A stretch of 64,000 nucleotides of DNA from an uncultured Hyphomicrobiales bacterium (GCA_964454975.1 CAYVVD010000001.1:131658-195657); one strand, 5' to 3'. Counted from the stretch's first letter, positions 26,504 through 48,419 are shown. Translations and numbers: made by a program. Notes: generated by a model from the sequence alone, not told the origin.

Positions 26504-26788
26504 AAATCCATACCCTTAATCTTTATTAATAAAACATTGTACAAATTTGTTTTCTATCTGAAATCCAATTCAAGTAACATTTAAGTAACGATTTTTTGTA
26601 CGAGAAATTATCTTTGAATAATTATTTCTATAGCTATTTTAGTCACAATGATTCTTGTAATGTACAAGTTTAAATCCTTTCACACCGACAACTGCTTTTT
26701 TTAGCCTGAATTTGTAATCCATTTCTGTATGTATTTTTCACTTTTTTTTGTATTATGATTTTTTTCAGGCACTTACCTGGGTTGCCCT

Positions 26789-29700
26789 TATGAAAATCTT
26801 AGAATTTACAAAAGAGCTTAAATTCGATTGTCTATTCGAAAGCAGTCTCAACTCTATCTTATTTTTAGATGCCTATGGAAAAATTGTTGATTTAAACTCC
26901 CGGGCTGAGAAATTGTTTGGAATTAGAAGAGAGATTTGCACCGGTAAATATTACCCAAATTACCTTCCGGGTGTTGAATCCAAAACAATAGATTTAATTA
27001 ATAAGGTTGCTGAAGATGGTCCGGAAATAATAGAACACTCCTCAGGTGAAAATGGCAGCACCAGGTTCTACAGGACTGAAATAAGACCCATGCTGGACAG
27101 CAATGCTGAGTTTATTGGCGCTATTTCAATCACAAAAGATGAAACTTCAAGGCTAAGAAAACAGGAAGAAATAAAGAAGCAGAAAGATTTTACAGAATCA
27201 TTATTCCAAAACATGATATCCGGTTTTGCACTCCATGAGATTATTTCGGATGAGGAGGGCAAGCCCGTTGACTATATCTTTCTTGATATTAACAAAGCCT
27301 TTGAAGATATTACAGGACTAATAAGCGCAGATATTAAAGGTAAAAGGGTTACTGATATACTTCCGGGAACCGAAAATGACCCTGCTGATTGGATCGGGCG
27401 GTATGGAAAAATTGCCATGACCGGAAGCCGGGAAACCTTCGAAAGCTATAGCGTTAATCTGAATAAATGGTTTGTGGTGAGTGCTTATTCTCCTGAAAAA
27501 GGAAAATTTGCCACTATATTTCAGGACATTACCAAAAGGGTTGAAGCTGAAAACAAATTAAAGCGAAACGAAGAAAAATTAAGGCTTATCATAGAAAACA
27601 GTACCAATTTGTTTTACTCTCATACGGCAGAGCATGAGTTAACCTATCTGAGTCCACAGTGTATTGATTATCTCGACTGTGAACCTGAAAAGGCGATGAA
27701 ACGCTGGACGGAGTTCGCCACAGACAACCCTGTAAACAAAATTGGATTTGAAAATACTGTCCGCGCAATTGAAACCGGCGAAAGGCAGACTCCTTATGAT
27801 CTGGAATTAAATAGTGCAAAAGGCAGGAAATTCTGGGTTGAAGTAAGGGAAACCCCGGTAGTTAAGCATAACAAGACTGTTGCTATAGTAGGCTCGCTTC
27901 ATGATATTACCGAGCGAAAGAGTGCGGAGACAGCTCTAAAGCAATCTGAAGCACTTTTTAGAAAAGTTCTTGAAAATATTAGGCTTATTGGGCTGATGTT
28001 GGATGAAAACGGCAAAATTACATTTTGCAACAAATTCCTGCTTAACTTAACAGGCCATAAGTATGATGAAGTTATTGGTGAGGACTTGTTCGAAAAATTT
28101 TTACCTTTAGAAATTCAACAAGAACACAAAGAAATGTTCTTCAGTACAATCAATGATATTGAGTTGCATGTAGTACACGAAAATGAAATAACTACAAAGG
28201 ATGGTGAAAGAAAGCTAATCAAATGGTTTAATACAGAAATGCGGGATGAATCAGGAAAACTCTTTGGCATTACAAGCATAGGAGAGGATGTTACTGCAAA
28301 GAGGAAAAGCCAGGAAAGATTCAGGCTAATTACCGAAATCACAACAGATATTACTTATGAATGGGATTTAAAAACTGACAACATTTCCTGGTTTGGCGAT
28401 ATTGACGCCGCACTTGGATATTCAAAAGGAACTATTAAGCCAAACCTGGAAAGTTGGTATGATCTTATCCATCCTGATGAATTAGAATACCTGAAAAATA
28501 TATTGAACGAATTTTACAACAAAAGCAATGAGCTTTTTATCGAGTACAGGATAAGGGATAGCAAAGGCAGATGGAGGCATTGGCAGGAAAAAGGCCTGGT
28601 AATCTTGGATGAAAACGGCAAACCCGGCAAAGTACTCGGTGCCTGCCTCGATATTACTGAAAAAAGGCGAGCTGAATTAGAGCTTATCAATAGAGAAAGG
28701 CAATTCCGCTTTCTTGCAGAAAACGCATTCTCGCTAATCAGATCTTATGAGTTAGATGAAATCCTGGGATTTGCAACTAATAAATTGTTTGAAATTACTA
28801 ACGGGGAAGCATCCGTATTTGTGTGTAAATTTAATGATAATACAAACAGATGGAGTATTTTCGATATTAAATTTTCAGACGATATGGATATCCAAAGCTC
28901 TCTAAAGTTTATTGAACATGTAAAATCTATTGAAATAAGAAATAATAGGTGGATTAATGAGAAATTACTAAGTGGAAGACTTGTAGAATTTGAAGAAGAT
29001 TTAACAAAGTTAATTAAGATTTTGAAACTCCCTGAAGAACTTATTTCATCTCTCAATAATACAGATATTGAAAAAATACTCTGTTTATCCTTTACTTATA
29101 ACAATAATTTCTATGGCACAGGCTGGCTTGTTTATTCGCAAAATGTAGAAAATATAAACAAACCGTTACTTGAAGCATTTTCAGTCCAGATTTCTACTGC
29201 TCTTAACAGGGTGCACAACGAAAAACAAAGACTCGATGCAGAGACTACATTCCGCAGCCTGTTTGAATCCAGCAATGACGCAATTTTAGTGATAGATGCC
29301 GAAACATCTCTAATAGTAGATGTTAATAAAGCTGCGCTCGATTTATACGGATTCAGGCGCTCTGAGCTATTAGGGCTTAATCCCGTGATGCTGTCAGCGG
29401 AACCGGGCTCTTTCTTTTCGATTTTGGACAGCACTGATAAAATCCCACTTAACAAAGTTCGGCAGAGTATTCATATAAAAAAGAATGGCTCGAGATTTCA
29501 CGTGGAATTCAGATTCTCATTATATGAATCTTCCGGAAAGAAATATCTTGCTGTACTTGTAAGGGATATAAGTGAAAGAGAAAGATATGAAAGAGAACTA
29601 AGCCAGGCTCATAAGCAAATACAGGCTTTTGCAGAACACCTCCAGAATGCAAGAGAAGAAGACCGTAAGCTGATTTCGCAGGATTTGCATGATGAGTTAG

Positions 29701-30272
29701 GAAGTTTTCTTGCCGGTATCAACTTCAGCCTTGGATATATAATTAAAGAGGCAAAGAAAAAGATTAAAAATAATAAAATCATTGAAGAGATTGATGCTAT
29801 GAGAAAATCTGTTAAAACAGGCATGATCAAGCTGAACGACATGATTGCAAAGATCAGGCCTAATGTTCTTGAGGGACTATCTATTTCAGAGGCTGTCGAA
29901 TGGCTGGTTGAAAATTTCCGAGAGAAATCCAATGTCTCTTGCAACCTGGTTACAAATGTGGATTATATTAATTTAAGTGATAAACAAATGACTGCAATTT
30001 TCAGGATACTGCAAGAGTCCCTTACAAATGTGATTAAACACGCTAAAGCAAAAAATGTGTTGGTAAAGCTTATTCAAAAGGATGATTTCCTTATTCTGAC
30101 TGTTAAGGATAACGGGCGTGGATTTGACTCGGACAATGCTCGCAAATTCTCTTTCGGCTTAGTCGGTATAAAAGAAAGAGCGGCTTCCTGTAACGGAAAC
30201 ATCAGTATTAAATCAAAACGCGGGAAGGGTACCGAAGTAACTCTCCAGGTACCGATTGAAGAAGGTGATTAA
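26789..30272 (+). CDS. multi-PAS sensor histidine kinase with a HisKA_3-type dimerisation domain (NarX/DegS-like core)
   Basis: At least four PAS/PAC-like modules and a GAF-like region. H-box DLHDELGSFLAG is followed by HATPase_c (N, G1 DNGRGF, G2 GLVGIKER). No TM helices are seen. The ORF-track start at 26748 is TTG; the first ATG is at 26789. Confidence 0.8.
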
Positions 30273-31807
30273 CAAATATCAAGCTCGTTGATTAATGTAT
30301 GGACACCATTCTTGCGGGTTTTATCAAACAGGTTTAGCTCAAGTGCAAATATGGAACCGACTCCAACCGAACTCCGGACTGTGATATTTCCATTCATCAA
30401 TTCCATGTATTTCTTTGTTATTGTAAGACCGAGGCCTGCCCCTTCGTAGTGCCGTGCTATACCGTCGCTTCCCTGCACAAACTCTTCGAATATTTCCAGC
30501 AGTTTTTCAACAGGTATTCCGATTCCCGAGTCTTTTATCTCTACAAGGTATTTAGACTGCTCTTTGTGGTTTTTAATCCTGGTTCTGATGCTTATCTCAC
30601 CCTTATCTGTAAACTTCACTGCATTTTGAATTAAATTGGAGAAACACTTTTTGAATAGCCTTTCATCACCCAATGCAGACTTCCCTTCACATTCATTTAT
30701 TAACTTAAGCTCCAGGCCTTTATTTTCAACTTCGTATTTATAGAATTCCAATACATTATTAATTAGCTCAACCGGGTCAATTGGGCTGAGTTTTAATTTA
30801 AAAATATCAAATTCCATGTCGGATAATTCAAGAATTTTGTTTAACGTATCCATCAAACGTTTGCCGCTATTATAAATCATACTTGCCATTTCTCTGATTT
30901 CATTGCTTTTTGAATCGCTTTCTATAAGCTGTGCAAAACCAAGGATACCAACCATTGGCGTCCTTAGTTCATGGCTCATATTTGAAAAGAAGTTGCTTTT
31001 TATTCTGTTCAGGCGTTCTCTTTCTTCAAGTGTTTTTCTCTGAATTTCCAAAGTTTTAATCCTCTCGGTAATATCCATTACGATACCGGAAATAATTTCA
31101 TCATTGCCAAGTGTGATATTCGCCAGTAGACTAAGCACATCGCCGGACTTTGTTACGCAATTAATCTCTAAATTTTCGACTATTTTTTCTTCAAATATCC
31201 GTTTTAATACCTGTTCCCTTTCTATTGGGTTGGAATATGCATCAGCTATACTGAAATTCTTTGCGTCTTCCTTATTGTACCCGAACATCTTAAGCAATGC
31301 ATTATTGGCAAATATCAAATCTCCATTATAATTTGTTTTATAAACACCAATTTTTGCATTGTTTACCAGGTTTCTGAAATTATGCTCACTTTCAGAAAGC
31401 TTCTCTATAGCGTTGTCTTTTTCGAGCCTGTCAATATAGGCTTTGTATTCTCTTTGGATTACAAGAGGAAGTTTAAGGATGTTGCTTTTCAGAATTATGT
31501 CGTCAGCGCCGGCTTTCATTATCTCTACAGTCTTTTCATTGCCCAATGTACCCGTGAGTATAACAAAAGGTTTTTCCGGGCATGCTGATTTTAAATCATT
31601 TAGTGCGTCGAGGCCTGTATAACCCTGGAGCTTGTAATTTGAAAGAACCAGATCAAAGCTGTCCGTGTTCCGGAGATAATGCTTATACTCCTGCCCGGTT
31701 TTTGCCCAGAAAAGCTCGTAAATTGCATCCTCTTTTTTCAGCAGGGCTTCAACAAGCAAGTAGTCAGCCCTGCTGTCTTCGAGAAAAATTATTTTTATAT
31801 TGTACAT
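30269..31807 (-). CDS. hybrid receiver-PAS-histidine kinase; its receiver has Asn at the phospho-acceptor position
   Basis: N-terminal REC (FDLVLSNYKLQGYTG), PAS, HisKA (NMSHELRTPMVGILGF), HATPase_c (GAGLGLTI). Confidence 0.8.
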   Translation of the reverse strand: MYNIKIIFLEDSRADYLLVEALLKKEDAIYELFWAKTGQEYKHYLRNTDSFDLVLSNYKLQGYTGLDALNDLKSACPEKPFVILTGTLGNEKTVEIMKAGADDIILKSNILKLPLVIQREYKAYIDRLEKDNAIEKLSESEHNFRNLVNNAKIGVYKTNYNGDLIFANNALLKMFGYNKEDAKNFSIADAYSNPIEREQVLKRIFEEKIVENLEINCVTKSGDVLSLLANITLGNDEIISGIVMDITERIKTLEIQRKTLEERERLNRIKSNFFSNMSHELRTPMVGILGFAQLIESDSKSNEIREMASMIYNSGKRLMDTLNKILELSDMEFDIFKLKLSPIDPVELINNVLEFYKYEVENKGLELKLINECEGKSALGDERLFKKCFSNLIQNAVKFTDKGEISIRTRIKNHKEQSKYLVEIKDSGIGIPVEKLLEIFEEFVQGSDGIARHYEGAGLGLTITKKYMELMNGNITVRSSVGVGSIFALELNLFDKTRKNGVHTLINELDIC

Positions 31808-31955
31808 TTATTTGCGTTTATAATTATTCAAATCTTTCAAATGCAATTTAGTCCAGGCAGGGATATTAAAAAGTAGGTAAAGTTATGATTAGTATGTAGA
31901 GAAAATTACTACAAGTAATGGGCAGATAATCTATTGATTTTAGTTGATTTATATC

Positions 31956-32591
31956 TCAAATAGCAATGAGTTTATTGCGGAGTGCATAAAAAACAATCTC
32001 GAAGTTGGAATGTAAGTTCATTTTTTCGAAAACACGTTGTTTGTATGTATTGACAGTACTCTGACTGATTGACAAATCTTCGGAAATTTCCCTGATTGTT
32101 TTGCCCGAGGCGATCATCAGGAAAATCTGGTATTCACGTTCAGATAATAATTCATGTTGTTTTTTCCGAGAATCTGCCCCGATTTTATCGGCGATGATTG
32201 CTGCGAATCCTGGAGTGATATATTTTTTCCCCGATGCTACCTGGTAAATGGCAAATATTACATCTTCCGGGTTGGATTCCTTTGTAATATAGCCCCAGGC
32301 ACCGAGTTTGAAAGCACGCTCAGCGTATATACGTTCCGGGTGCATCGTCAGAAAAACTATTTTACAATTCAATCCGGCTGCTTTAATGTCTTTAAGCAAC
32401 TCAAGTCCATCTCTGTCAGGAAGGCTTATATCAAGAAGTGCTACATCGCAAGCGCTTTTTTTTACCCCGTCAAATACTTCGCCTCCGCTCCCTGCCTCGC
32501 CAACTACCTCTATGTCAAGCTCTGATTCTATTACCTTACGGAGCCCTTCGCGGACAAAGAAATGATCATCAGCTATAAATACTTTAATCAT
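31956..32591 (-). CDS. NarL/LuxR-family response regulator
   Basis: REC (IADDH; DVALLDISLPDRDG) plus a C-terminal LuxR HTH (LSEREYQIFLMIASGKTIREISEDLSISQSTVNTYKQRVFEK). It is the likely partner of the HisKA_3 kinase. Confidence 0.85.
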   Translation of the reverse strand: MIKVFIADDHFFVREGLRKVIESELDIEVVGEAGSGGEVFDGVKKSACDVALLDISLPDRDGLELLKDIKAAGLNCKIVFLTMHPERIYAERAFKLGAWGYITKESNPEDVIFAIYQVASGKKYITPGFAAIIADKIGADSRKKQHELLSEREYQIFLMIASGKTIREISEDLSISQSTVNTYKQRVFEKMNLHSNFEIVFYALRNKLIAI

Positions 32592-32835: not shown

Positions 32836-35085
32836 ATGCAAAAAGTTGAATTCGAGCTTGATGAACAAGAATTGAACAATTGGCTTGAAAATCAATATAT
32901 TGATTCTAAAAGGAGTAAAAATTCAATTCTCGGCGACCTGCTCAAAGCCAGGGATATCATAAAAAAACAACAGGAAGATCTGCAAAAAACAAATAAAGAC
33001 CTTCTTGCATTGACTGTTGAACTGGAAAAGGAACTTGAGAAAAGGAAAAGTACTGAAAAGAAATTATTTGCGCACAATGAGCGCCTTGAGTTGCTGGTTG
33101 ATAAAAGGACAGCTTCATTAAAACAGTTAAACAGTGCTCTGCTTAGGCAAATTGAAGATAAAAGAGAAATTGAAAAAGACTTAATTGAAAACGAGCGCAA
33201 ATTCCGTACACTCTATGATAATTCACCTGATATGTATGTATCTGTTTCTCCCGATGACGCTTCTATTAAGCTATGCAACAAGACACTACTGAAATACACA
33301 GGCTACGAAGCTAAAGAGCTTATCGGGGAATCGGTTTTTTTTATGTATCATGAGTCATGCCTGGACGATGCAAAGGAAGCTTTCAATGAGTTTATTACTA
33401 CAGGAAAAGTAAGAGACAAAGAGCTTAAGCTAAAAAGAAAGGATGGAAGTATTATTGATGTCAGCCTGAATGTTGACTCCGTAAAAGACGAAAACGGGAA
33501 GATACTCTATTCCATGTCTTCCTGGAGGGATATTACAGAGAGATTAAAATCCGAAAAAATAATCAGGGACAATGAGAAAATATTCAAAGCAATTTTTAAA
33601 AATTCACCTTTAGGAATGGCGATTTTGGATACGTCCGGGAAACTATTGTTTGTTAATCCTGCTCTTGTAAATTTTACAGGTTACAGCGATGAGGAACTGA
33701 AATCAATGATATTTACCGAATTTACTCATCCTGAAGACATTAATAAAGATTTGGATAAGTATTTAGAATTGGTTCAAGGTAAAATAAAAAGCTACAAGAT
33801 GGAAAAAAGGTACATTAATAAGAATGGTGAGATTGTCTGGGGGAATTTGAACGTAACCGGTATAAGGGATGATAACGATGATCTGGAGTTTGTCCTGGGG
33901 ATGGCAGAGGATATTACTGAAGTAAAAGAACTTGAAGAAAGCAGAGAATCACTTCTGCATGACTTAAGGGAAAGAAACAAAGAACTGAATTGTTTGTACC
34001 AACTATCAAGGTTGACTTCAGATAGTAAGTTAGGGATTATAGAGGTTCTTAAGAAAACAACTGAAATTATTCCTCCGGCATGGAAATACCCGGAAATAAC
34101 AGAAGTAAAAATCACTTTTGAAGATGTTGAATATAAAACACCGGGATTCCGGGAAAGCAAATGGAAACTTGACAAATCATTTGCAGTAGGCTCAGAAAAC
34201 GAGATTAACATCAAGGTTGTGTACCTAAAAGAAATGCCGGCAATGTATTATGGCCCATTTTTGAAAGAAGAACAAGAACTGATATTGGCACTTGCGAGAA
34301 ACCTGTCACATTATATAGAGAGGAAAAAATACGAGGATAAAGTTCTCAGGCAAAAAGAAATACTCGAGGATTTGGTAGCGAAGCGCACATCTGAATTAAT
34401 TAGAGCAAACAAAGACCTCGAAGAATTCAGCTATTCGGTATCTCATGACCTTCGTGCCCCATTGCGTCACCTAAGCGCTTTTTCGCAAATGCTTGTAGAA
34501 AAGATCTCGGGAATTGCAGACAAGAAAGCACTCCACTATCTGGATATTATTAATAAATCTGCAACAAAGATGGACAGCTTGATTACTGCTATTCTGAATT
34601 TCTCTCGAACAGGCAGAGTAACAATAAATAAATCCCGAATAGACATGAATTCATTAATTAATGAAATAATCCGTGACTTCCAGTTAGACCTAACCGAAAG
34701 GAAAGTAAACTGGATAATCGGTGAACTGCCTGAAATTAATGGAGATACATTGCTGATAAAGCAAGCATTTGTTAACGTAATATCAAACGCAATTAAATAT
34801 ACTTCACTTGAAGAAGTTGCCGAAATAACAATTATAGGAAACTCAAACGGAGATAAAGCGACTATTTCAATTATTGACAATGGTGTAGGCTTTGCTTCCG
34901 AAAACGCAGACAATATTTTTGGAGTTTTTCAAAGGCTGCATGCAGAGGAAGAATTCAATGGGATTGGCATTGGCCTGGCCAATGTTAAGAAAATAATCAC
35001 CAGGCATGGTGGAGATATAACAGGCAAAGGCTCCCCGGGTGAGGGAGCAGAATTCACAATTACATTACCAAATGGAGAAGCTTGA
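32836..35085 (+). CDS. cytoplasmic coiled-coil/PAS sensor histidine kinase (phytochrome-type HisKA)
   Basis: N-terminal coiled coil, two PAS domains and a GAF-like region. HisKA SVSHDLRAPLRHL, HATPase_c (DNGVGF; GIGIGLANVKK). First gene of a six-gene overlapping operon. Confidence 0.8.
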   Translation: MQKVEFELDEQELNNWLENQYIDSKRSKNSILGDLLKARDIIKKQQEDLQKTNKDLLALTVELEKELEKRKSTEKKLFAHNERLELLVDKRTASLKQLNSALLRQIEDKREIEKDLIENERKFRTLYDNSPDMYVSVSPDDASIKLCNKTLLKYTGYEAKELIGESVFFMYHESCLDDAKEAFNEFITTGKVRDKELKLKRKDGSIIDVSLNVDSVKDENGKILYSMSSWRDITERLKSEKIIRDNEKIFKAIFKNSPLGMAILDTSGKLLFVNPALVNFTGYSDEELKSMIFTEFTHPEDINKDLDKYLELVQGKIKSYKMEKRYINKNGEIVWGNLNVTGIRDDNDDLEFVLGMAEDITEVKELEESRESLLHDLRERNKELNCLYQLSRLTSDSKLGIIEVLKKTTEIIPPAWKYPEITEVKITFEDVEYKTPGFRESKWKLDKSFAVGSENEINIKVVYLKEMPAMYYGPFLKEEQELILALARNLSHYIERKKYEDKVLRQKEILEDLVAKRTSELIRANKDLEEFSYSVSHDLRAPLRHLSAFSQMLVEKISGIADKKALHYLDIINKSATKMDSLITAILNFSRTGRVTINKSRIDMNSLINEIIRDFQLDLTERKVNWIIGELPEINGDTLLIKQAFVNVISNAIKYTSLEEVAEITIIGNSNGDKATISIIDNGVGFASENADNIFGVFQRLHAEEEFNGIGIGLANVKKIITRHGGDITGKGSPGEGAEFTITLPNGEA

Positions 35086-35516
35086 TGAAAGAAGATTCCT
35101 GCGTTTTGCTGGTGGATGACGATCCCGGCGATTTGGAACTGATTAAGGAGGTAATAATTGATTACTACCCGGGCGAGGATGTTTTGGCTTTCGAAGATCC
35201 CGAAGAAGCCTTCGAATACTTGCAAAACAAATGGCAAAGGAAAAACAAGAAATGGTTCCTGCTTTGTGATCTTAATATGCCGAAACTAAGCGGTGTGGAC
35301 TTAATCAAAAGACTTCGTAAGGAAGAAAAATTCAATGGAATACCTATTGTAGTGTTCAGTTCTTCGTTCGAAGAACAAGACAAAGAAGAATGCTATAATG
35401 CAGGGGCAAATTCCTATGTTGTAAAGCCCGGAATATTCCCCGATTTTAAAGAAAAGATAAAAAGTATTGGCCAATATTGGGGAGAAATTAACGAACCCCT
35501 TAAAACGGAGATATAG
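35082..35516 (+). CDS. single-domain response regulator (Rcp1-like receiver)
   Basis: REC motifs VLLVDDD; LCDLNMPKLSG; K in VVKP. 4-bp overlap with the upstream kinase. Confidence 0.8.
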   Translation: MMKEDSCVLLVDDDPGDLELIKEVIIDYYPGEDVLAFEDPEEAFEYLQNKWQRKNKKWFLLCDLNMPKLSGVDLIKRLRKEEKFNGIPIVVFSSSFEEQDKEECYNAGANSYVVKPGIFPDFKEKIKSIGQYWGEINEPLKTEI

Positions 35517-35518
35517 TA

Positions 35519-38413
35519 ATGGAAACCCAGGAAATTCCGGATAAATTACGAATCTTAAATCTTGAGGACAGCCCTGCAGACACCGAATTAATAAAGCATG
35601 CTATTGACAGCATGAGCATGGATTACGAATTAATCCGGGTTGATTCAAAGGTAAAATACATTGAGAAATGTAAGGCAGCGGAATTTGATTTAATACTTTC
35701 TGATCACAAGCTGCCGGGGTTTAATGGTATTGAAGCTCTCAAAATTGCCTTAGACCTATGCCCCGGGATACCGTTTATATTTGTATCGGGCACAATCGGA
35801 GAAGAGATTGCTATTGAGGCAATGAAACACGGCGCCACCGATTATATTCTAAAGAAAAATCTTAATAAAATACCGATTGCGATAAAAAGGGCGCTTAAGG
35901 AACTTAAAGAGAATAAAAAAAGAATATTTGCAGAAATGCAACTCGTCCACATTAATAATGTTCTAAATTCAATCAGGAATGTTAACCAGTTAATTGTAAA
36001 AGCGAAAGATAAAATTCAACTTCTTAACGAAGCCGTTAATCTGATAACTGAATACAAAGGCTATAAGCATGCTATTATTGGTTTACTTGGTGAAAATAAT
36101 GAAGTAGTCCATTATAGTTTTTCGGGGTTGGATGAGTATGTCGAAGATTTTAAAAGGGGTAGTGATATTGGACTGTCTTTGTGCTGGGAAAATACCGGAA
36201 AGTATAAAAATAGTGATATCTATTTGCCCGGCAATGAATGTGAATCATGTTGCCTCCACAGTTATTCAAATTCGGGTTACCGTTCGATATCCTCAAGACT
36301 GGAACATGAAGGCAATAACTACGGCTTTATTACAATATCCGTACCAGAAGAATTCATTGATGATGAACAGGAGCTCAGCCTTTTCAGGGAAATGAGAGGA
36401 GATATTGCCTTTGCCATTTATTCGCTTAACCTGAAGGAAGAGCAGGAAAAAGCCTTTTTAATGCTCGAAGAAAGCGAAGAGAAATACCGCAGGTTGGTCG
36501 AAAACATGATGGAGGGAGTAACTGTTGTAGATGTAAACGAGAAAATACTTTTTATTAACGAGACGGCACTGGAGATATTCGGTCATTCACGGGAAAAAAT
36601 GCTCGGCAAGCCTTTAACAGAGTTTACGCCTGAATCTGAGCACAAAATATTACAACAATCAACTAAGGAAAAATTGGAAGGCCAAACCTCGTCCTATTTG
36701 CTCAAGATTAAAAAGAAAAACGATGAAGAAAGGTATCTTAGAGTCAATTCTTCGCCTCTTTTCGAAAAAAACGGTTCTTATTACGGCTCCCTTGGTGTTT
36801 ACCACGATATAACAGAGCCCATTGAATTCCGTGCGAAACTCGAACGTAGTGAGCAAAGATTTAGGAAAATTTTTGAAGATTCTCCTAACGGAATACTAAT
36901 ATTCGATGAAGATGGCAGTTTGATTGACGTAAACAAGGAGTTTTATAACATATTGGGTATTTCACCGGACGAACCGAACGATTTTAATTCTTACAACATT
37001 TTCAATGACACAAATATCGAAGATTTGGAATTGTCCGAATTAAAGCAGGGTGAGAGTATTGTCTTCCAGTTGCATTGCAGCCCTGAATTTGACAGAAATT
37101 GTTTCAACTTAAGTAATTCGGTAAGAAACTTATACCTAAGTGTAAAAGTCACACCACTTGATATTCTCGGTGAAGGCAGGGTAGAAGCATACATGATGAT
37201 AGTGGATGATATTTCAAAACTAAAAGAAACCGAGGTTGATCTAATCCACTCCAAAGAAAGAGCAGAGCGCCTGAACCGCCTTAAATCTATTTTTCTTGCG
37301 AACATGAGCCACGAGATGCGCACGCCTATGGTTGGCATTCTCGGCTTTTCGGAAATATTGCTCAAAGAGGCACAACCGGAGGAAACCAGGGAAATCGCTG
37401 AGATAATCTACAACAGCGGCAAAAGGTTGATGGATACTCTTAATCTTGTGTTGGATTTGACAAAGATAGAATCAGACAAGCAAGAAATGAATATCGAGAT
37501 TGTTAATCCGATGTTTGTAATCATGGATGCAATCAGGCTATATGACAAATTTGCTTTAGAAAAAGGAATTGAACTTACAGCCGAAATTCAGGATGATTCA
37601 CTCCGGTGTGAACTTGATGAGAATATAATATATAAGATAGTTTATAATCTTATTAACAATGCCATTAAATTCACAGACAACGGATATGTTAAGGTTATAC
37701 TTGACAAGGAACTGCAAGGTGATGAATTATGGATGGTAATAAAAGTCGAGGATAGCGGGGTAGGCATAGATGAGGAATATATTGGTGTGATCTTTGATGA
37801 ATTCAGGCAAGTTAGTGAAGGTATAAATCGTTCATATGAAGGAACAGGCCTTGGGCTTACAATTACTAAACACCTCGTTGAAATATTGGGCGGCAATATT
37901 TCGGTTACAAGCAGGCTGGGCAAAGGCTCCACGTTTACAGTAAAATTTAAAGCTATCAACAAAGCAGAGATTAATGAACCAAAAGGTCCTGAACAAAAAG
38001 TAAAAACTAAAATCAATCTTTTGTACAAAGAGGAATCAAGATCGGATTTAAGTATCATGCTTGCTGAAGACGACGAGGTGAACAAAAAACTGATGAATAG
38101 ATACCTGGAAGAATTTGGTGATGTTACTCATGTCTATAATGGAGAGGATGCTTTGAGCCTTACTTCCGCTAATAAATACGATCTCATTATACTCGATATT
38201 AATCTTGGCAAAGGTATTGATGGCGTAGAAACTATGCTGCAAATTAAGAAACAGGGGAATAATCCGAACGCCAGGTATCTTGCTTTGACAGCATATGCGA
38301 TGAAAGGCGACAGTGAGGAATTCCTCGAAGCAGGATTTGATTATTATATTTCCAAGCCATTTTCCAGAAATGATTTTTTAGAATTGGTGAATAAACTCGC
38401 AGAGAAATCATGA
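35519..38413 (+). CDS. hybrid sensor kinase: REC-GAF-PAS-PAS-HisKA-HATPase-REC
   Basis: N-terminal REC (DLILSDHKLPGFNG), HisKA NMSHEMRTPMVGILGF, HATPase (GTGLGLTI) and C-terminal REC (DLIILDINLGKGIDG). Confidence 0.8.
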   Translation: METQEIPDKLRILNLEDSPADTELIKHAIDSMSMDYELIRVDSKVKYIEKCKAAEFDLILSDHKLPGFNGIEALKIALDLCPGIPFIFVSGTIGEEIAIEAMKHGATDYILKKNLNKIPIAIKRALKELKENKKRIFAEMQLVHINNVLNSIRNVNQLIVKAKDKIQLLNEAVNLITEYKGYKHAIIGLLGENNEVVHYSFSGLDEYVEDFKRGSDIGLSLCWENTGKYKNSDIYLPGNECESCCLHSYSNSGYRSISSRLEHEGNNYGFITISVPEEFIDDEQELSLFREMRGDIAFAIYSLNLKEEQEKAFLMLEESEEKYRRLVENMMEGVTVVDVNEKILFINETALEIFGHSREKMLGKPLTEFTPESEHKILQQSTKEKLEGQTSSYLLKIKKKNDEERYLRVNSSPLFEKNGSYYGSLGVYHDITEPIEFRAKLERSEQRFRKIFEDSPNGILIFDEDGSLIDVNKEFYNILGISPDEPNDFNSYNIFNDTNIEDLELSELKQGESIVFQLHCSPEFDRNCFNLSNSVRNLYLSVKVTPLDILGEGRVEAYMMIVDDISKLKETEVDLIHSKERAERLNRLKSIFLANMSHEMRTPMVGILGFSEILLKEAQPEETREIAEIIYNSGKRLMDTLNLVLDLTKIESDKQEMNIEIVNPMFVIMDAIRLYDKFALEKGIELTAEIQDDSLRCELDENIIYKIVYNLINNAIKFTDNGYVKVILDKELQGDELWMVIKVEDSGVGIDEEYIGVIFDEFRQVSEGINRSYEGTGLGLTITKHLVEILGGNISVTSRLGKGSTFTVKFKAINKAEINEPKGPEQKVKTKINLLYKEESRSDLSIMLAEDDEVNKKLMNRYLEEFGDVTHVYNGEDALSLTSANKYDLIILDINLGKGIDGVETMLQIKKQGNNPNARYLALTAYAMKGDSEEFLEAGFDYYISKPFSRNDFLELVNKLAEKS

Positions 38414-40017
38414 GTGAAAAATTGAAAGTATTAATTGTTGACGACCAGGAATATAACCTGCAACTATATTCTCGTATTCTTAAAGCAGAAGGATATGAAA
38501 CTGAAAAAACCACAAATGGTCTCGACGCCATTAAAATACTTGAGGCCGACAGCAGCTTTTCGATTATATTGATGGACATACAGATGTCCGGAATGGACGG
38601 TTTCGAAACAGTTGAAAGGATAAAAAAAATCCCAAAAGCCTGCGATATACCCACTATATTTATAACAGGTATTTTTGAAACAGAAGAATTCAAATTACGC
38701 GGCTTCGATATAGGAGCTTATGATTACTTAATAAAGCCGTTTGAATCAAATGTCCTTATTCGAAAGATAAAGCTTTTTACAACTCTCTATCATCAGAAAC
38801 TTGAACTCGAAAAATACGGGAATGAACTCCGGGCAAGGAATGAAGAACTTGATATTACACTGAAGTCTCTTTCAGAAGGTGTGCTCAGAACAGACCGGGA
38901 GTTTAACGTATTGATGATGAACAGCGCTGCCAAAAATATTTTCGGGATTTTGGAGAGCAAGGACAGCGGCTTTAACTTGATAAGTCTGTTTGAACAACAT
39001 CTTGAGGAGAGATCGATCGTAAAACTGAAAGAATTTATTAATAAAAATGAAACTGAGCAATTAAAGCACCTGAAATTCAACTTGTCAATTAACAACGAAA
39101 AATCAAAAATTATATCTATTAATATTAATATAATCAACACCGAAAATGAAAAAAAATCAGGTTATGTATTTATTATTAGTGATATAACCGGAAAAATTCA
39201 AATCGAGAACCAGCTTGCATTGTCCCAGAAGATGGAATCCGTAGGGCAATTAGCTGCCGGCATAGCTCATGAAATCAATACTCCGATGCAGTTTATCGGC
39301 GACAACACTTACTTCCTTAACGAAGCCTTTGAATCTATAAATAATTATTCAAATTCATTAAGAGATAGCATTAACAAGGAAAGCGACATAGAAAAAATCC
39401 GCTCTGCTGAAGCTGATCTCTGGGAAGAAAATGATATTGAATTTCTTATTGAAGAAGTACCTACTGCAATTGACAGGACGATGAAAGGGGTAGAGCGGGT
39501 ACGCGATATTGTTATGGCTATGAAAAATTTTGCACATCCTTCGGGAAAGAAGAAAATGCCTTCGAATATTAATAAGGGTATCGAAGTTACAGCTACAATA
39601 TCAAAAAATGAATGGAAATATGTTGCAGACCTTGAAACAGAGTTTGATGAAAACATGCCTGCTGTTTATTGTTCGCTCGATGAAATAAACCAGGTCGTAT
39701 TAAATATGATTATTAATGCGGTTCATGCCATTGAAGAGAAGAACGGAAAAGGCGAAAAAGGAAAAATTTCAATCAGGACAAGCCATGTAGAAAAAAGTGC
39801 TTATATTGAAATATCTGACTCCGGCAATGGAATTCAGCCGGATAAGTTATATAGAATTTTTGACCCTTTCTTTACGACAAAGGAAGTCGGAAAGGGTACA
39901 GGCCAGGGTCTTGCAATAGCTCACGATATTATAGTTAATAAGCATAGCGGCAAAATAAGGGTTGATTCTGAAGTCGGGAAAGGCACAAAATTTATAATTG
40001 AGCTTCCGGTTATTTAA
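38410..40017 (+). CDS. receiver-PAS-histidine kinase hybrid
   Basis: REC (ILMDIQMSGMDG), PAS, H-box GIAHEINTPMQFI, HATPase (G1 DSGNGI; G2 GTGQGLAIAHD). Confidence 0.75.
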   Translation: MSEKLKVLIVDDQEYNLQLYSRILKAEGYETEKTTNGLDAIKILEADSSFSIILMDIQMSGMDGFETVERIKKIPKACDIPTIFITGIFETEEFKLRGFDIGAYDYLIKPFESNVLIRKIKLFTTLYHQKLELEKYGNELRARNEELDITLKSLSEGVLRTDREFNVLMMNSAAKNIFGILESKDSGFNLISLFEQHLEERSIVKLKEFINKNETEQLKHLKFNLSINNEKSKIISININIINTENEKKSGYVFIISDITGKIQIENQLALSQKMESVGQLAAGIAHEINTPMQFIGDNTYFLNEAFESINNYSNSLRDSINKESDIEKIRSAEADLWEENDIEFLIEEVPTAIDRTMKGVERVRDIVMAMKNFAHPSGKKKMPSNINKGIEVTATISKNEWKYVADLETEFDENMPAVYCSLDEINQVVLNMIINAVHAIEEKNGKGEKGKISIRTSHVEKSAYIEISDSGNGIQPDKLYRIFDPFFTTKEVGKGTGQGLAIAHDIIVNKHSGKIRVDSEVGKGTKFIIELPVI

Positions 40018-41228
40018 TGAGCGATAAATTAAAAATACTGTTTGTTGATGACGAGAAAGATGTGCTTGACGGTTATATGCGAATGCTTTTTTCCATGCGC
40101 AAAGAATGGGATATGGAATTTGTCCTGAGTGGAAAAGAGGCATTGGAATACCTTGCTAAGCAGGAAACCGATGTTGTAGTTTCTGATATGAAAATGCCCG
40201 AAATGGACGGTACTGAACTGCTCTCGAAAATCAAAGAACATTATCCTAACATAATTAGGTTAATTCTATCAGGCCACCAGGACTTAATCAGGATTGTCAG
40301 CTCTACCAACCTTGCTCACAGGTTTTTATCCAAGCCCTGCAGTACAGAAGTATTGAAGCAAAATATCAGCAATTCCTTTCGTGTAAGAGAGTTGATTAAC
40401 AACCCTCGTCTGGTAAGGCTTATAAACGGAATCGGCGAACTCCCTGTAATCCCCGAAAACTACTTAAAGCTGGACGAACTGCTCAACAGCGAGGATATAT
40501 CTATCGCTGTTATTGCAGATTTTATTTCGGGTGACCCTGCATTAACGGCAAAAATATTACAAACCGTAAACTCCGGCTTTTTTGGACTTCCGCGAAGAAT
40601 TACAGAACTACAGGAGGCTATTGGATTTCTCGGTACTCATATTATCAAATCTCTGGTGCTCTATCTTCAGGCATTTGCTGTTAAGGACTTAGATTATGAG
40701 CAACGCAAGTTTCTACTTAAAATTGGTATGCATTCCCTGCGAGTAGCACAGATTGCCCGCTCGATTTCGCAGTCACAAAAGCTCAATAAGCAGGATTGCA
40801 ATGATGCTTTCACAGCAGGCATTCTGCATGATATAGGCAATTTAATACTATTGCGGGTTTCCGGTTACCTGGATAAAAGAGACAAAATGCTATCTGAAGG
40901 AATCCATATTCTCGATATAGAAGAACGGATAATCGGTGTTACTCACGAATCTGCCGGAGCATACCTGCTGGGAATCTGGGGTATTCCCCAGACGATAGTC
41001 GAGGCGGTTGCTTTCCACCACAAGCCGGAAAAAATTGAAGCAAAAGGATTTAATATTCTCACCGCATTGCACATTGCTAACGCTCTTGCAAATTACACTG
41101 ATGAAGAATATGATATTGAAAAGCTAAATGTTAACTGGGCTTTCTTGCGAAGGCAGGATCTTGAGAAAAATTTACAAGTGTGGTTTGAAAAGTCGCGTAA
41201 ATATTTGAAAGAAGAATCCATGTTTTAG
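40017..41228 (+). CDS. response regulator with an HDOD output domain
   Basis: REC (VVVSDMKMPEMDG) plus HDOD hallmark (AKILQTVNSGFFGLPRRI..L..AI..LG...I..LVL; GILHDIG). Confidence 0.8.
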   Translation: MSDKLKILFVDDEKDVLDGYMRMLFSMRKEWDMEFVLSGKEALEYLAKQETDVVVSDMKMPEMDGTELLSKIKEHYPNIIRLILSGHQDLIRIVSSTNLAHRFLSKPCSTEVLKQNISNSFRVRELINNPRLVRLINGIGELPVIPENYLKLDELLNSEDISIAVIADFISGDPALTAKILQTVNSGFFGLPRRITELQEAIGFLGTHIIKSLVLYLQAFAVKDLDYEQRKFLLKIGMHSLRVAQIARSISQSQKLNKQDCNDAFTAGILHDIGNLILLRVSGYLDKRDKMLSEGIHILDIEERIIGVTHESAGAYLLGIWGIPQTIVEAVAFHHKPEKIEAKGFNILTALHIANALANYTDEEYDIEKLNVNWAFLRRQDLEKNLQVWFEKSRKYLKEESMF

Positions 41229-42379
41229 TGGAATTATCAGTTATGGAAAATGTACTATTTGTTGATGATGAATACGAAGTGCTTTCTGCATTCCAGAGAA
41301 ACCTCCGAAAGCATTATAAAGTAAGCATAGCTACGAGCGGCAAAGAAGGCCTTGAACTAATGACGGAATCCAGAAAGATTGCTGTTGTTGTCTCAGACTT
41401 CAATATGCCTGAAATGAGCGGAGTTGAGTTTCTTACACTCGTGAAAGAGGCCTCTCCGGAAACAGTACGAATGCTTCTCACAGGTTTTGCAGACCTTGAC
41501 ACGGCTATGAATGCAGTAAACAAGGGGAATATTTTCCGGTTCATGACTAAACCTATATCAACAAATGATATAATACCGATTATTGATGCTGGAATTGAGC
41601 AGTACAATTTAATTAAATCAGAAAAGGAACTACTAAACAATACTCTAAAAGGAAGTATAAAAGTCCTGATTGATATTTTATCAACCACAAATCCTACAGC
41701 ATTCAGCAAATCAACCAGGATTAGGAATATTGCAAAAGGTATTGCATTAAATTTGAAAATTGAAAAGCTTTGGGAAGTCGAAATTGCTGCATTGCTTTCC
41801 CAGATTGGATGTATTGCAATTCCTGAATTTATCCTGGAAAAAGTTTACAATGGTGAATCACTTACTTCTGAGGAAAAGAACCTATATGACAAGCATCCAA
41901 ACTTAGGCCATGAACTGCTGAAAAATATACCGCGTCTTGAAGCAGTATCTGAAGCCATTGGAAAACAGAATCTTGATCCGGGAACCTATAGTTCGGAAAA
42001 TGTCCCCGGCAAAGAGATTCCTTTGCTATCCAAGATCCTGCGTGTAGCTAATGATTTTGACACTTACCTCCAAAAAGGAGATTCTGAAGTGCTTGCATTC
42101 AAGAAACTACTTTTGAACCAGGAGAAATATGAAGCCGGCTTAATCAGGGCATTGGAAAAGGACTTAACCGGGCTTGGCACTGAAAGGATGGAAGTGAAGG
42201 CAATTCCCTTCAGAAATATAAGGGTGAACATGACCTTAGCAGACAATATTACTGATTCGAAAGGTGTTATACTTCTGACAAAAGGAAACGAGATAACAGA
42301 TGTGAATTTGATGAGGCTGATTACCGCTTCTCGCGTTCGTAAAATAAACGAACCGATTAAGGTATGGGTGAAGAAATAA
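41228..42379 (+). CDS. response regulator fused to a degenerate (predicted non-catalytic) HD-GYP-like domain
   Basis: REC (VVVSDFNMPEMSG). The HD-GYP-like region has substituted catalytic positions: LLSQIG in place of LLHDIG, GKQ in place of HHE, and DPGTYS in place of DGSGYP. Confidence 0.65.
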   Translation: MELSVMENVLFVDDEYEVLSAFQRNLRKHYKVSIATSGKEGLELMTESRKIAVVVSDFNMPEMSGVEFLTLVKEASPETVRMLLTGFADLDTAMNAVNKGNIFRFMTKPISTNDIIPIIDAGIEQYNLIKSEKELLNNTLKGSIKVLIDILSTTNPTAFSKSTRIRNIAKGIALNLKIEKLWEVEIAALLSQIGCIAIPEFILEKVYNGESLTSEEKNLYDKHPNLGHELLKNIPRLEAVSEAIGKQNLDPGTYSSENVPGKEIPLLSKILRVANDFDTYLQKGDSEVLAFKKLLLNQEKYEAGLIRALEKDLTGLGTERMEVKAIPFRNIRVNMTLADNITDSKGVILLTKGNEITDVNLMRLITASRVRKINEPIKVWVKK

Positions 42380-42404
42380 TAACGAGAAAATTCAGAATAA
42401 ATTA

Positions 42405-42432
42405 AAAAGAGCGTAGTTCACGCTCTTTTTTG
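42405..42432 (+). terminator. rho-independent terminator closing the six-gene signalling operon
   Basis: aagagcgt-agttc-acgctctt stem-loop followed by TTTTT. Confidence 0.55.
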
Positions 42433-42623: not shown

Positions 42624-42707
42624 GCCCGGATGGCGGAATTGGTAGACGCGCTACATTCAGGGTGTAGTGTCCTTAAGGGCGTGGAGGTTCGAATCCTCTT
42701 CCGGGCA
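42624..42707 (+). tRNA. tRNA-Leu (anticodon CAG)
   Basis: Acceptor stem gcccgga/tccgggc, anticodon loop ttCAGgg, long variable arm, T-arm ggttcgaatcc. Confidence 0.85.
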
Positions 42708-42744
42708 CAGCCTGCAAAAGTTTGTTCAGTATTTAACTGCTTTT

Positions 42745-45873: not shown

Positions 45874-47115
45874 TCAATTGGATAGCAATGTATCGCGGTA
45901 AATGTTATACCATTCGGGAACCTTTTCCTCCATGCCGTTTGCTTTTATATAAGCGAGGTTGGCCTTCAGGGTGTCAATTTTGAATTCTTTACCGTTCAGG
46001 CCCTCAAATGCATTTGCAAGATGGACGGCAAAGAGCATTGTAAACCCTTCCTGGGTTATAAGAGATGTATTGTGATGAAAGGCGGCGGTTTCAACGATAT
46101 GCTGAGGAATGCCCCAAAGTCCAAGCAGGTATGCGCCGGCAGCTTCGTGTGTTACTCCCGCAGCTTCTAATTCTGCATCTTGTTCAGTGGCGCCTTTAGA
46201 GAGGAGTTCTTTTCTCAAGTGAATAAAACCAGGTACCTTCATTAATACAAGCAAACCAATGTCATGAAGAATGCCGGCAGTGAAAGCATCGTTGGTAATT
46301 ACTTTTTCAAGCTTTTCTTTCTGGCACAAGTTTTTGGCAAGATGCGCTACCTTCAGGCTATGCTGGCTTAACTTCTGGATGTGTTGCCTTTGTTCCCCGG
46401 TAGCGCCTTGAAGCGCAAAAGTATGCAGGTATAGCACGAGTGATTTTATAATATGCGTCCCAAGCAATCCTATGGCTGTATTTAGCTCAGTAATTGTACG
46501 AGGCAGACCAAAAAAGCCTGAGTTTACTGTTTGAAGGATTTTCGCAGTCAGCGAGGGATCGTTTGAAATAAAATCACTTAACGTATCAACTGTAGTTTTC
46601 TCGTCTTCAAGAAGTTTTTCAATATCTAGATAAGTTTCCGGGACAGAAGGCAGCTCGCCAATGCCATTAATCAGTTCAATGAGCTGCTTGTTGTCAATCA
46701 TATCATTAAGTGTCATGGCATTCAATATGTTATTCTTTAAGTCCTCTCCTTTGCAAGGCTTCGCAAGAAATCTGTGTGCCAGATTTGAAGAACGGATTAC
46801 TCTCAGCTTTTCCCTGCTTTCTGAAACCAATACCCTTACAAGATTCGGATGTTTTTCTTTAACCTGCTTCAGCAACTCCGTACCATTCATATGAGGCATT
46901 TTCAAGTCAGCTACAATAACATCAACTTTTTTGATGAGTAATGCACGGAGGGCATCTTCGCCTGCCTGGGTAAAATAGAGTTTCCAGTCAGGAGCTACTG
47001 CATTTATTTCGCGTTTATATGTTGCAAGCGATGCATATTCATCATCTACAAAAAGTATTGCCACATCCTTTTTCATAATTGTCAGGTTAATGATAATCCT
47101 TGAGTTTAACTTCAT
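45874..47115 (-). CDS. response regulator with HDOD output domain (paralog of 40017-41228)
   Basis: REC (VIVADLKMPHMNG) plus HDOD. Long identical blocks are shared with the island copy (AKILQTVNSGFFGLPR.ITEL; LGTHIIKSLVLYL; DAFTAGILHDIG). Confidence 0.8.
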   Translation of the reverse strand: MKLNSRIIINLTIMKKDVAILFVDDEYASLATYKREINAVAPDWKLYFTQAGEDALRALLIKKVDVIVADLKMPHMNGTELLKQVKEKHPNLVRVLVSESREKLRVIRSSNLAHRFLAKPCKGEDLKNNILNAMTLNDMIDNKQLIELINGIGELPSVPETYLDIEKLLEDEKTTVDTLSDFISNDPSLTAKILQTVNSGFFGLPRTITELNTAIGLLGTHIIKSLVLYLHTFALQGATGEQRQHIQKLSQHSLKVAHLAKNLCQKEKLEKVITNDAFTAGILHDIGLLVLMKVPGFIHLRKELLSKGATEQDAELEAAGVTHEAAGAYLLGLWGIPQHIVETAAFHHNTSLITQEGFTMLFAVHLANAFEGLNGKEFKIDTLKANLAYIKANGMEEKVPEWYNIYRDTLLSN

Positions 47116-47225: not shown

Positions 47226-48404
47226 CTAACAACCGCCGGACACTTTAATAACATTCTTCTTAGGTTTTACAACCTTTTCTGAGTTTTTTCGCACTTCTTC
47301 AAGCTTCATGGCTGCGTCTCTGAGGAAGCGATTCTTAAATTCACCCTGAATACCAGCAATATTGTATGATTCAGGGCTAAGAATCTCTTCCCTGAATTTA
47401 GCTAACCCACCTTCAAGAACTATGTTAATCCCAGTCCCGATTTCACCGGCAAGGATTGCAGCTTTCCTGGCATCTTTTTCCTTCTCCGAGTAAAATATTA
47501 TTTCCTTTGTGTTCTTTTCAAAGAATTCACGCCATTCTCTGTTTAAAATGCTGTCCAAAGGTATGTTAACGGAAGTTGGGATGTTGTATTCATTGTATTT
47601 CAGGGACTCTCTTACATCAACGACAGTTAGGTTTTTATCATATTTAATCAACCTGTAAGTTAATGCAACGGGGGTTACCGTTTTAATCTCAGCAGTAGAA
47701 ACTAATTTTGCAGCATCAGCATACATTTTTTCCTCCCTGCCAGGAGTGAATAAAAAATACAACCCAAGAATAACTACAATGCCTGCTGCAGCATAGTGCA
47801 TATTGGATATTTTGTAAACATTGTATCCTTTATTTACCCTTCGCTCTATGCCTGATGTTACAAAAAATGCTGCCAGAGCCACGCCTATCAGTATGAATGC
47901 GAACATATCCTGTGTGATACCGAGCGTTTCGAATACTTTAACATCTCCCATATCATAACCGGAATAAATAGGTTCGACAATGGGATATATCTCGCCAAAA
48001 ATCAATACACCAATAAATAAGCCACCGATAAAAAACATTGCATCAATCTTGCCTATAGCAGCGCCACAAATACTTGTGCCCGGGCAATATCCTCCAAGTA
48101 TGAAACCAAGTCCCATAATAAGCCCGCCAACTATAGCTGACCACACAAACGTAGGATTGATATATATTATCTCTGCATCAAGAAATCCGAATTGTGAAAG
48201 GAACATAATTCCGAGCATCGCTGTTACTGCAGCGCTAAAGAATACTCTTAATACAGTAAAATCATTTCCGTAGAATAGCCCTGCGAGCTTTCTCGAAGAT
48301 GAAAAACCTGCCTGCTCAAGCACAAAACCGAATGCTATTCCTATCAATATTGCCAGTACAAGGCTTAACTCGTTGCTTATCATATCAGGAACAAACGGTC
48401 CCAT
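47226..48404 (-). CDS. YeeE/YedE-family sulfur-compound transporter half fused to a C-terminal rhodanese-like domain
   Basis: N-terminal ~200 aa is polytopic (Gly-rich TM helices GLGFILGGYCPGTS). The C-terminal rhodanese fold is VVDVRE...NIP. Position of the catalytic Cys reads ...IIFYSEKEKDARK.... Confidence 0.6.
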   Translation of the reverse strand: MGPFVPDMISNELSLVLAILIGIAFGFVLEQAGFSSSRKLAGLFYGNDFTVLRVFFSAAVTAMLGIMFLSQFGFLDAEIIYINPTFVWSAIVGGLIMGLGFILGGYCPGTSICGAAIGKIDAMFFIGGLFIGVLIFGEIYPIVEPIYSGYDMGDVKVFETLGITQDMFAFILIGVALAAFFVTSGIERRVNKGYNVYKISNMHYAAAGIVVILGLYFLFTPGREEKMYADAAKLVSTAEIKTVTPVALTYRLIKYDKNLTVVDVRESLKYNEYNIPTSVNIPLDSILNREWREFFEKNTKEIIFYSEKEKDARKAAILAGEIGTGINIVLEGGLAKFREEILSPESYNIAGIQGEFKNRFLRDAAMKLEEVRKNSEKVVKPKKNVIKVSGGC

Positions 48405-48419
48405 AATTTCACCTGCCTG

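Follow-up and report, generated by a model that had tools for sequence, protein, structure and literature searches.

The 64,000-nt window analyzed here, the whole stretch of DNA under study, derives from an uncultured Hyphomicrobiales bacterium (GCA_964454975.1 CAYVVD010000001.1:131658-195657) and carries on its plus strand an operon of six genes, numbered G1 to G6, that encode a soluble sensor histidine kinase (HK), a single-domain receiver (REC), a hybrid kinase, a kinase with an N-terminal receiver, a REC-HDOD protein, and a protein joining a receiver to a degenerate HD-GYP-like domain (Table 1). All six open reading frames (ORFs) described in a first-pass annotation of this DNA were recovered in place, and Pfam supports two-component domains in each of the encoded proteins. 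The junctions had been described throughout as start/stop overlaps, which holds for four of them (1-4 nt) but not for G2/G3, where TAG-TA-ATG leaves a 2-nt gap. The G1/G2 junction, TTGATGA, overlaps by 4 nt if G2 starts at TTG 35082 and by 1 nt if it starts at ATG 35085; G3 and G4 share ATGA (4 nt), G4 and G5 overlap by 1 nt in TAATG, and G5 and G6 by 1 nt in TAGTG if the GTG start of G6 is used. The database form of G6 (P0001, 378 aa) begins at ATG 41243, 14 nt downstream. As had been proposed, a single intrinsic terminator closes the operon, formed by the palindrome AAAAAGAGCGT-AGTTC-ACGCTCTTTTTT, and a terminator scan found no further terminator-like site on the plus strand within the operon; a scan for promoter-like sites returned 40 where 35.8 were expected, which is the level of chance. 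None of the six proteins has a predicted transmembrane helix (maximum Kyte-Doolittle 19-residue mean at most 1.67, with the hydropathy peaks located in REC or HD core elements), and a membrane sensor was rejected on this ground. Together with the Pfam domains, this bears out the earlier description of a cytoplasmic, PAS-based, multi-kinase two-component operon. The phospho-accepting His is intact in all three kinases and the phospho-accepting Asp in all six receivers, and each of the six proteins is a singleton when clustered at 90% identity.

Table 1. Features of the six-gene operon and its flanks, in window coordinates; G1 to G6 are ORF calls, and residue numbers refer to the encoded proteins.
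Feature	Position	Strand	Description
G1	32836-35085	+	Soluble sensor histidine kinase, 749 aa; Pfam PAS-PAS-HisKA-HATPase: coiled-coil N-terminus, PAS aa 154-213 and 250-362, HisKA 528-591 (His537), HATPase 636-746
G2	35082-35516	+	Single-domain receiver, 144 aa; Pfam REC (Asp63)
G3	35519-38413	+	Hybrid kinase, 964 aa; Pfam REC ... PAS-PAS-HisKA-HATPase-REC: REC aa 9-125 (Asp62), GAF-like 167-300, PAS 321-433 and 446-560, HisKA 589-652 (His598), HATPase 700-811, REC 846-957 (Asp893)
G4	38410-40017	+	Cassette kinase, 535 aa; REC aa 7-120 (Asp56), weak PAS 151-259, kinase core 267-534 (His287)
G5	40017-41228	+	REC-HDOD protein, 403 aa; REC aa 7-117 (Asp57), HDOD 142-337
G6	41228-42379	+	REC plus HD-GYP-like protein, 383 aa from GTG 41228 or 378 aa from ATG 41243; REC aa 9-118 (Asp57), HD_5 145-283, C-terminal domain 321-382
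Intrinsic terminator	42404-42432		Palindromic; 11-bp stem, 5-nt loop, A-run before, T-run after
tRNA-Leu	42624-42708		3' of the terminator
NarL/LuxR-type regulator	31956-32591	-	REC-GerE; divergent, 244-bp intergenic region to the operon
REC-PAS-HisKA kinase	30269-31807	-	Upstream of the operon
Multi-PAS HisKA_3 kinase	26748-30272	+	1174 aa; upstream of the operon

A conserved three-gene cassette

Genome and metagenome loci carrying a G6 homologue were collected and their ORFs annotated by phmmer with the domain queries of the window; a scan of genome contigs with a single-protein query gave true homologues at five loci, the other matches (about 75) being to receivers alone, and the metagenome loci were obtained by a scan with alignment A1. 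Where at least 1.3 kb of sequence precedes the G6 homologue (52 loci), an HDOD gene lies directly upstream on the same strand in 43 and elsewhere in the locus in three more. A kinase core of the G4 type directly precedes the HDOD gene in 22 of the 32 loci with room upstream, and in most of the remainder a kinase stands between or beside the two regulators. The genes are closely spaced, as the HDOD-to-HD5 junction measures 30 nt or less in 36 of 49 loci and the HK-to-HDOD junction in 22 of 28. The taxa represented include Kapabacteria, Chlorobiota, Sumerlaeota, and Desulfobacterota; Desulfosoma caldarium, which is in culture, carries the REC-HDOD/REC-HD5 pair. The window contains the full cassette of G4, G5, and G6 with 1-nt overlaps, and the locus with the closest G6 relative (L081, 55% identity) encodes REC-PAS-HK, REC-HDOD, and REC-HD5 in the absence of G1-G3. 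Since conservation covers only G4-G5-G6, these three genes are, judged from gene order and homology, an evolutionary module to which G1-G3 are a variable input add-on. The evolutionary unit is thus not the six-gene set but a smaller cassette that is common across phyla.

The sensor part of the cassette kinases is variable, from about 290 to 1,600 aa. In L167, a hybrid PAS-GAF-PAS-HK-REC kinase, a REC-HK orthologous to G4, REC-HDOD, and REC-HD5 follow one another with overlapping junctions, the hybrid kinase being 33% identical to G3 over 525 aa and the G4 orthologue 53% identical to its counterpart. L164 shows two successive kinase/single-receiver pairs, then REC-HK4 and REC-HD5. In L001-L004 (Kapabacteria, Chlorobiota) and L168, a REC-HisKA-HATPase gene of about 350-370 codons, LvrB-like in layout, sits between the REC-HDOD and REC-HD5 genes (at about 8880-9990 and 6929-7987), and in L083, L088, L093-L095, L106, and L117 the HD5 gene is followed by one for a 180-220-aa receiver protein; these inserted kinases and trailing receivers are variable accessories of the cassette.

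It had been asked beforehand whether homologous clusters are common and already assigned to a known pathway; they are common, but an assignment to a known pathway was not found. A chemosensory or phytochrome system was considered and rejected, as the six proteins gave no CheW, MCPsignal, Hpt/P2, or PHY matches. A literature search found no description of the SQ-type REC-HD-GYP-like family to which G6 belongs, of its pairing with a metal-site-intact REC-HDOD protein, or of the three-gene cassette, and no paper on the present gene set, in agreement with the earlier statement that this is not a described pathway.

G6, a conserved pseudo-enzyme

By its Pfam matches G6 is a receiver (Response_reg, 65.8 bits) followed by an HD-GYP-fold domain (HD_5, 98 bits), the catalytic motifs of which are lost: S191-Q192 takes the place of HD, G245-K246-Q247 that of HHE, and K161 that of the motif-I His, while the loop aligned with GYP reads PGTYSS, varies across the family, and has a low predicted local distance difference test (pLDDT) score. 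Judged by these residues, G6 is clearly catalytically dead and incapable of nucleotide hydrolysis. A catalytic HD-GYP phosphodiesterase of the RpfG family was tried as a candidate and rejected, all metal ligands being lost. The replacement residues recur in the 120 aligned family sequences, with S and Q at the dyad in 120 and 105, C in 93, and Q at the last HHE position in 119; in the same sequences the receiver keeps D13, D14, D57, and K108 without exception, and position 85 is occupied by T or S. Since both the replacement residues and the receiver sites are conserved, the family bears the marks of a maintained, phosphorylatable pseudo-enzyme and not of a decaying gene.

Homologues of G6 number more than 2,300 at E<=1e-10 in a word-indexed search (43-55% identical), with named sources in Ignavibacteria, Kapabacteria, Bacteroidota, Rhodothermaceae, Spirochaetota, Desulfobacterota, and Firmicutes. 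The output part alone retrieves 397 clusters (50% identity) at E<=1e-30, whose listed members are mostly about 380 aa long and carry the domain at residues 131-377. AlphaFold models of the G6 type (pLDDT 88 and 90.7) comprise the receiver, a 40-residue helix, a helical HD-type domain, and a 60-residue beta/alpha C-terminal domain, and only the GYP loop is modelled with low confidence. In Foldseek comparisons the HD-type domain is closest to DvhD (PDB 9RBZ), followed by PgpH, Bd1817, PmGH, and PA4781, and lies much further from HDOD structures. The C-terminal domain (window 42188-42373), with four strands and one helix at pLDDT above 90, is conserved in the family under the consensus GMxLAxDI...G..L..KG.EIT...EPIKV and has no Pfam or PDB match; its strand and helix content recalls the description of DUF3391 in HD-GYP proteins (PMC12943098).

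Degenerate HD-GYP domains have been described in HnoD of Shewanella oneidensis (SO_2541), which inhibits the EAL regulator HnoB (bioRxiv 10.1101/2021.11.05.467447), and in NosR of Burkholderia pseudomallei, which is phosphorylated by NosK (PMC12570481). Like G6, both consist of a receiver and a dead HD-GYP domain and have a co-encoded kinase, and their output is thought to be protein-protein regulation. However, HnoD has SE/QLE and NosR HG/GTP at the substituted positions, where G6 has SQ/GKQ and has lost GYP, and G6 scores 240.3 bits against the NosR family NCBIfam NF053512, which is under the cutoff of 400. The HnoD and NosR systems also have a nitric oxide sensor (H-NOX or NosP/FIST) and HnoD an EAL partner, whereas the operon has neither, and the scanned ORFs of the window gave no HNOB or FIST match. 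The partner of G6 is instead a REC-HDOD protein, and G6 has an extra conserved domain at its C-terminus.

The closest solved relative of the G6 output is DvhD of Desulfovibrio vulgaris (PDB 9RBZ, 9RC0), in which HD has likewise become SQ and which is metal-free and without hydrolysis. However, DvhD belongs to a Lap-like adhesin system, where it serves as an inner-membrane receptor (dCache-TM-PAS-HD-GYP) and not as a response regulator, and it retains the GYP Tyr and an R-x-Y-R motif that bind cyclic di-GMP (c-di-GMP), both of which are missing from the G6 family. When the DvhD residues were mapped onto the family from a HMMER pairwise alignment, only L577 among the canonical-site contacts was kept, as L212 (118 of 120), along with a hydrophobic residue at the M646 position, while Y523, K582, Y621, R650, Y652, R653, and E668 were variable, Gly, or gapped. 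Because these contacts are mostly lost, binding of c-di-GMP by G6 in the known mode is unlikely, and protein-protein regulation is more likely than c-di-GMP sensing. The earlier proposal of a protein-interaction or c-di-GMP output is therefore retained in its first half, which HnoD and NosR render plausible, but not in its second.

G5, a REC-HDOD protein with a predicted metal site

The output domain of G5 matches HDOD (PF08668) over profile positions 1-196 of 196 at 155.5 bits (cutoff 22.9; HD, 40 bits), and its best PDB match is the Geobacter HDOD protein 3HC1 (E 3e-21), which binds two iron ions through five His and one Asp (PMC12075610). Residues H239, H271, D272, H310, H334, and H335 of G5 align with the HS, HD, SH, and HH motifs of 3HC1, and the six ligands are kept in 87-98% of 45 aligned sequences (G5 and 44 partners). 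From this alignment G5 belongs with the metal-site-intact HDOD subgroup typified by 3HC1 and is predicted to bind metal. The first-pass annotation had taken both terminal outputs to be non-catalytic, which stands for the dead site of G6 but not for G5, since with a complete binuclear metal site G5 is not shown to be non-enzymatic.

HDOD serves widely as an output domain in bacterial signalling, and its biochemical role is not established (PMC6543031). The REC-HDOD architecture of G5 is shared by DVU0330 of D. vulgaris, GsmR of Xanthomonas campestris, and MmoQ of Methylococcus (PDB 3LJX, 3P3Q). G5 resembles DVU0330 and 3HC1 in keeping the HD dyad and the other His ligands, whereas GsmR, which affects flagellar gene expression, is without the active-site His. 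DVU0330, which retains HD, showed weak Mn-dependent hydrolysis of bis(p-nitrophenyl) phosphate (bis-pNPP) and none of c-di-GMP (PMC4114195). In the literature no report was found of DVU0330, GsmR, MmoQ, or 3HC1 being paired with a dead HD-GYP regulator.

A second REC-HDOD gene lies at window 45874-47115 (minus strand) and encodes a G5 paralogue with 50% identity and an HD motif. It closes a series of minus-strand genes (47226-51137) that encode a multihaem Cytochrome_cB protein, cytochrome b561, and Sulf_transp and Sulf_transp-rhodanese proteins. In L081, too, genes for Cytochrome_cB, cytochrome b, and rhodanese are found no further than 8 kb from the cassette. HDOD regulators may be linked to sulfur-compound respiration, or this may be mere shared synteny of related genomes.

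The kinase G4, the receivers, and the upstream proteins

Pfam describes G4 as REC-(weak PAS)-HATPase with an H-box, and the kinase core is AtoS/NtrB-like, with AtoS, T2SS_HK, and ZraS as its best NCBIfam matches. Within the operon, the G5 receiver matches that of G6 best and vice versa (84 bits, with all other pairs at 48 or less), which fits a shared kinase; both resemble the receivers of NtrC1, HupR, and DctD (an NtrC/HupR-like subtype). On sequence grounds the G4 core and the G5 and G6 receivers are thus both NtrB/NtrC-related, a match at the level of class only. The receiver of G4 is closest within the operon to the C-terminal receiver of G3 and is also close to receivers of hybrid kinases, e.g., BarA and RcsC.

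Upstream, G1 contains an interval of about 145 aa between its second PAS domain and HisKA (aa 370-515, window 33943-34380) that has no Pfam match at E<=10; it includes the motif ELNCLYQLS and is a candidate sensor or linker domain. The GAF domain attributed to G3 could not be upheld at the Pfam threshold, as the GAF_2 match, which does cover the whole profile, scores only 14.7 bits (E 0.036; cutoff 28.6); the C-terminal end of this GAF-like region aligns just past the GAF_2 domain of the L167 hybrid kinase, and a word-based homologue search with the region retrieved no homologues. Within it (window 36017-36418), Cys222, 241, 244, and 245 form a C-x18-C-x2-C-C cluster, which from its spacing could be a metal, iron-sulfur, or redox-sensing site.

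The operon had been called a phosphorelay. However, the histidine phosphotransfer domain (Hpt, PF01627) has no match in the six proteins (E<=0.01) or in the other window ORFs scanned, and with no Hpt present this is not a classical His-Asp-His-Asp phosphorelay. Soluble hybrid kinase and receiver tiers without Hpt also occur in the receiver-gated LvrA/LvrB system of Leptospira, in which LvrA signals to LvrB. Partial NCBIfam matches link G3 and G4 to LvrB and G1 and G3 to LvrA, but the scores lie far under the cutoffs (e.g., 207 against 1200 for LvrA), and Lvr is not known to be linked to HDOD or HD-GYP outputs.

A model of signalling through the cassette

Taken together, the analysis allows the construction of a model, towards which we lean with moderate confidence, of a two-tier and fully cytoplasmic two-component network built on the G4-G5-G6 cassette. 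This model proposes that the G4 kinase phosphorylates both co-encoded response regulators, G5 and G6, as the conservation of the three genes suggests. The cassette kinases of most genomes bring variable sensor domains of their own. Because the input of G4 in this operon consists of a receiver and a weak PAS domain, G1, G2, and G3 would most likely form an upper layer that sets the activity of G4 through phosphorylation or binding of its receiver. Signal flow would then be a cascade through a receiver-gated kinase and not a His-Asp-His-Asp relay, and the receiver of G2 and the two of G3 may act as sinks, connectors, or feedback elements. By analogy with HnoD and NosR, G6 would be a protein-binding regulator switched by phosphorylation, with G5, which is nearly always co-encoded and is translationally coupled, as its most likely partner, while the metal-bound HDOD domain of G5 may be the actual effector, either as an enzyme or as a metal- or redox-dependent binding module. 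The output would be non-transcriptional. The first-pass annotation had reached the same view, which stands in that the terminal regulators belong to the HD superfamily and are not DNA-binding, but the divergent NarL-type neighbour makes a transcriptional branch possible.

Several points weigh against this model. Each arrow between the proteins is one that we infer. G1 and G2 could be an independent kinase-regulator pair that shares only the operon, and a hybrid kinase such as G3 normally needs an Hpt, which may be encoded elsewhere and feed any receiver. A NarL-type regulator is encoded divergently next door. Six of the 52 loci with a G6 homologue, e.g., L085, have no HDOD partner, therefore G5 cannot be an obligate target. 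DVU0330, the sole HD-retaining REC-HDOD protein tested, is only weakly active (PMC4114195). Finally, of 22 cassette kinases only 3 showed a receiver, and a cascade layer therefore does not belong to the cassette in general.

Some of these points lead to other readings of the operon. One of them, which we judge unlikely, sees in the operon a bundle of two-component systems that have nothing but the timing of expression in common and no cascade linking the tiers: G1 paired with G2, G3 working by itself or with an Hpt and a regulator encoded at a distance, and G4 paired with G5 and G6. The limitation of the conserved unit to G4-G5-G6, the presence in L081 of a cassette without G1-G3, and the succession of a kinase and a single receiver in G1-G2, which is a standard cognate arrangement, are all in keeping with such a bundle, as is the singleton status of the six proteins at 90% identity. 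However, G4 has no recognizable input other than its receiver, in which Asp56 is intact, and a weak PAS domain, so some kinase must feed it. In addition, in an independent genome (L167) a G3 homologue immediately precedes the G4 orthologue and the junctions overlap, L164 has kinase/single-receiver pairs ahead of its REC-HK4 gene, and the receiver most similar to that of G4 within the operon is the C-terminal one of G3. An alternate scenario would place the output in transcription, with G1 or G3 phosphorylating the divergent NarL/LuxR-type regulator and with G5 and G6 as modulators or phosphate sinks. On the opposite strand, 244 bp before the operon, there is indeed a REC-GerE gene and after it one for the REC-PAS-HK, whose receiver is the closest relative of the N-terminal receiver of G3 (82 bits), and the neighbouring loci are therefore related. 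Yet NarL-type regulators normally pair with HisKA_3 kinases, of which the adjacent 1174-aa protein would be the more natural partner, whereas the kinases G1 and G3 are of the HisKA type, and the cassette is present in other genomes without a NarL-type neighbour, making this scenario very improbable.

It is also possible, although decidedly improbable, that G6 is a metal-free cyclic-dinucleotide receptor in the manner of DvhD that integrates phosphorylation with c-di-GMP (or with cyclic GMP-AMP [cGAMP] or pGpG), and that the operon is a c-di-GMP-sensing pathway. DvhD is the best PDB match to the G6 output domain (sequence E 6e-7; Foldseek E 1.5e-6, TM-score 0.57-0.67), shares with it the replacement of HD by SQ, and binds c-di-GMP with sub-micromolar affinity in the absence of metal and of hydrolysis (PMC13090378). 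The strong conservation of S, Q, C, and Q where the active site used to be further suggests that the G6 family has maintained a pocket. However, beyond L577 and the hydrophobic residue at M646, the DvhD contacts are not conserved; K582, Y621, and R650, which bind phosphate, and Y652/R653, which clamp the base, are all replaced, the GYP loop is the low-confidence part of the G6 models, and the window ORFs that were scanned include no GGDEF, EAL, or PilZ gene.

The two-tier model may be extended to the cassette at large. In this extension, which is tentative and on balance rather doubtful, G6-type pseudo-enzymes would control the metal-dependent activity of G5-type HDOD proteins in a phosphorylation-dependent manner as a widespread module, placed in the present operon under a receiver-gated kinase cascade; if true, it would provide a first mechanistic function for HDOD. 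All of the domains, as well as the idea of a dead HD-GYP regulator, are already known, the components come from familiar families, and the present work is comparative genomics. Few degenerate HD-GYP regulators have been described (HnoD, NosR, and, as a receptor, DvhD). Here, a metal-site-intact REC-HDOD protein and a strictly dead REC-HD-GYP protein are co-encoded and tightly coupled under one kinase type at dozens of loci in several phyla. The cassette thus provides a defined handle on HDOD function, with a testable pairing in which a pseudo-enzyme may regulate an HDOD protein and in which the role of the HDOD metal site can be addressed, and its six-gene version, with a kinase that has a receiver as input module, should be useful for the study of multi-kinase networks.

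Genomic surroundings

Threonyl-tRNA synthetase from the window shares about 76% identity with proteins of Kapabacteria and Ignavibacteria metagenome-assembled genomes, by which the host would be an uncultured representative of these lineages. The signalling genes upstream (26748-32591) and the operon together make up a signalling supercluster. About 20 kb upstream, a stand-alone hemerythrin-domain protein and a single-domain receiver are encoded at 10955-11464 (plus strand) and 12567-13049 (minus strand), and a hemerythrin gene is also found near the cassette in Desulfosoma (L083).

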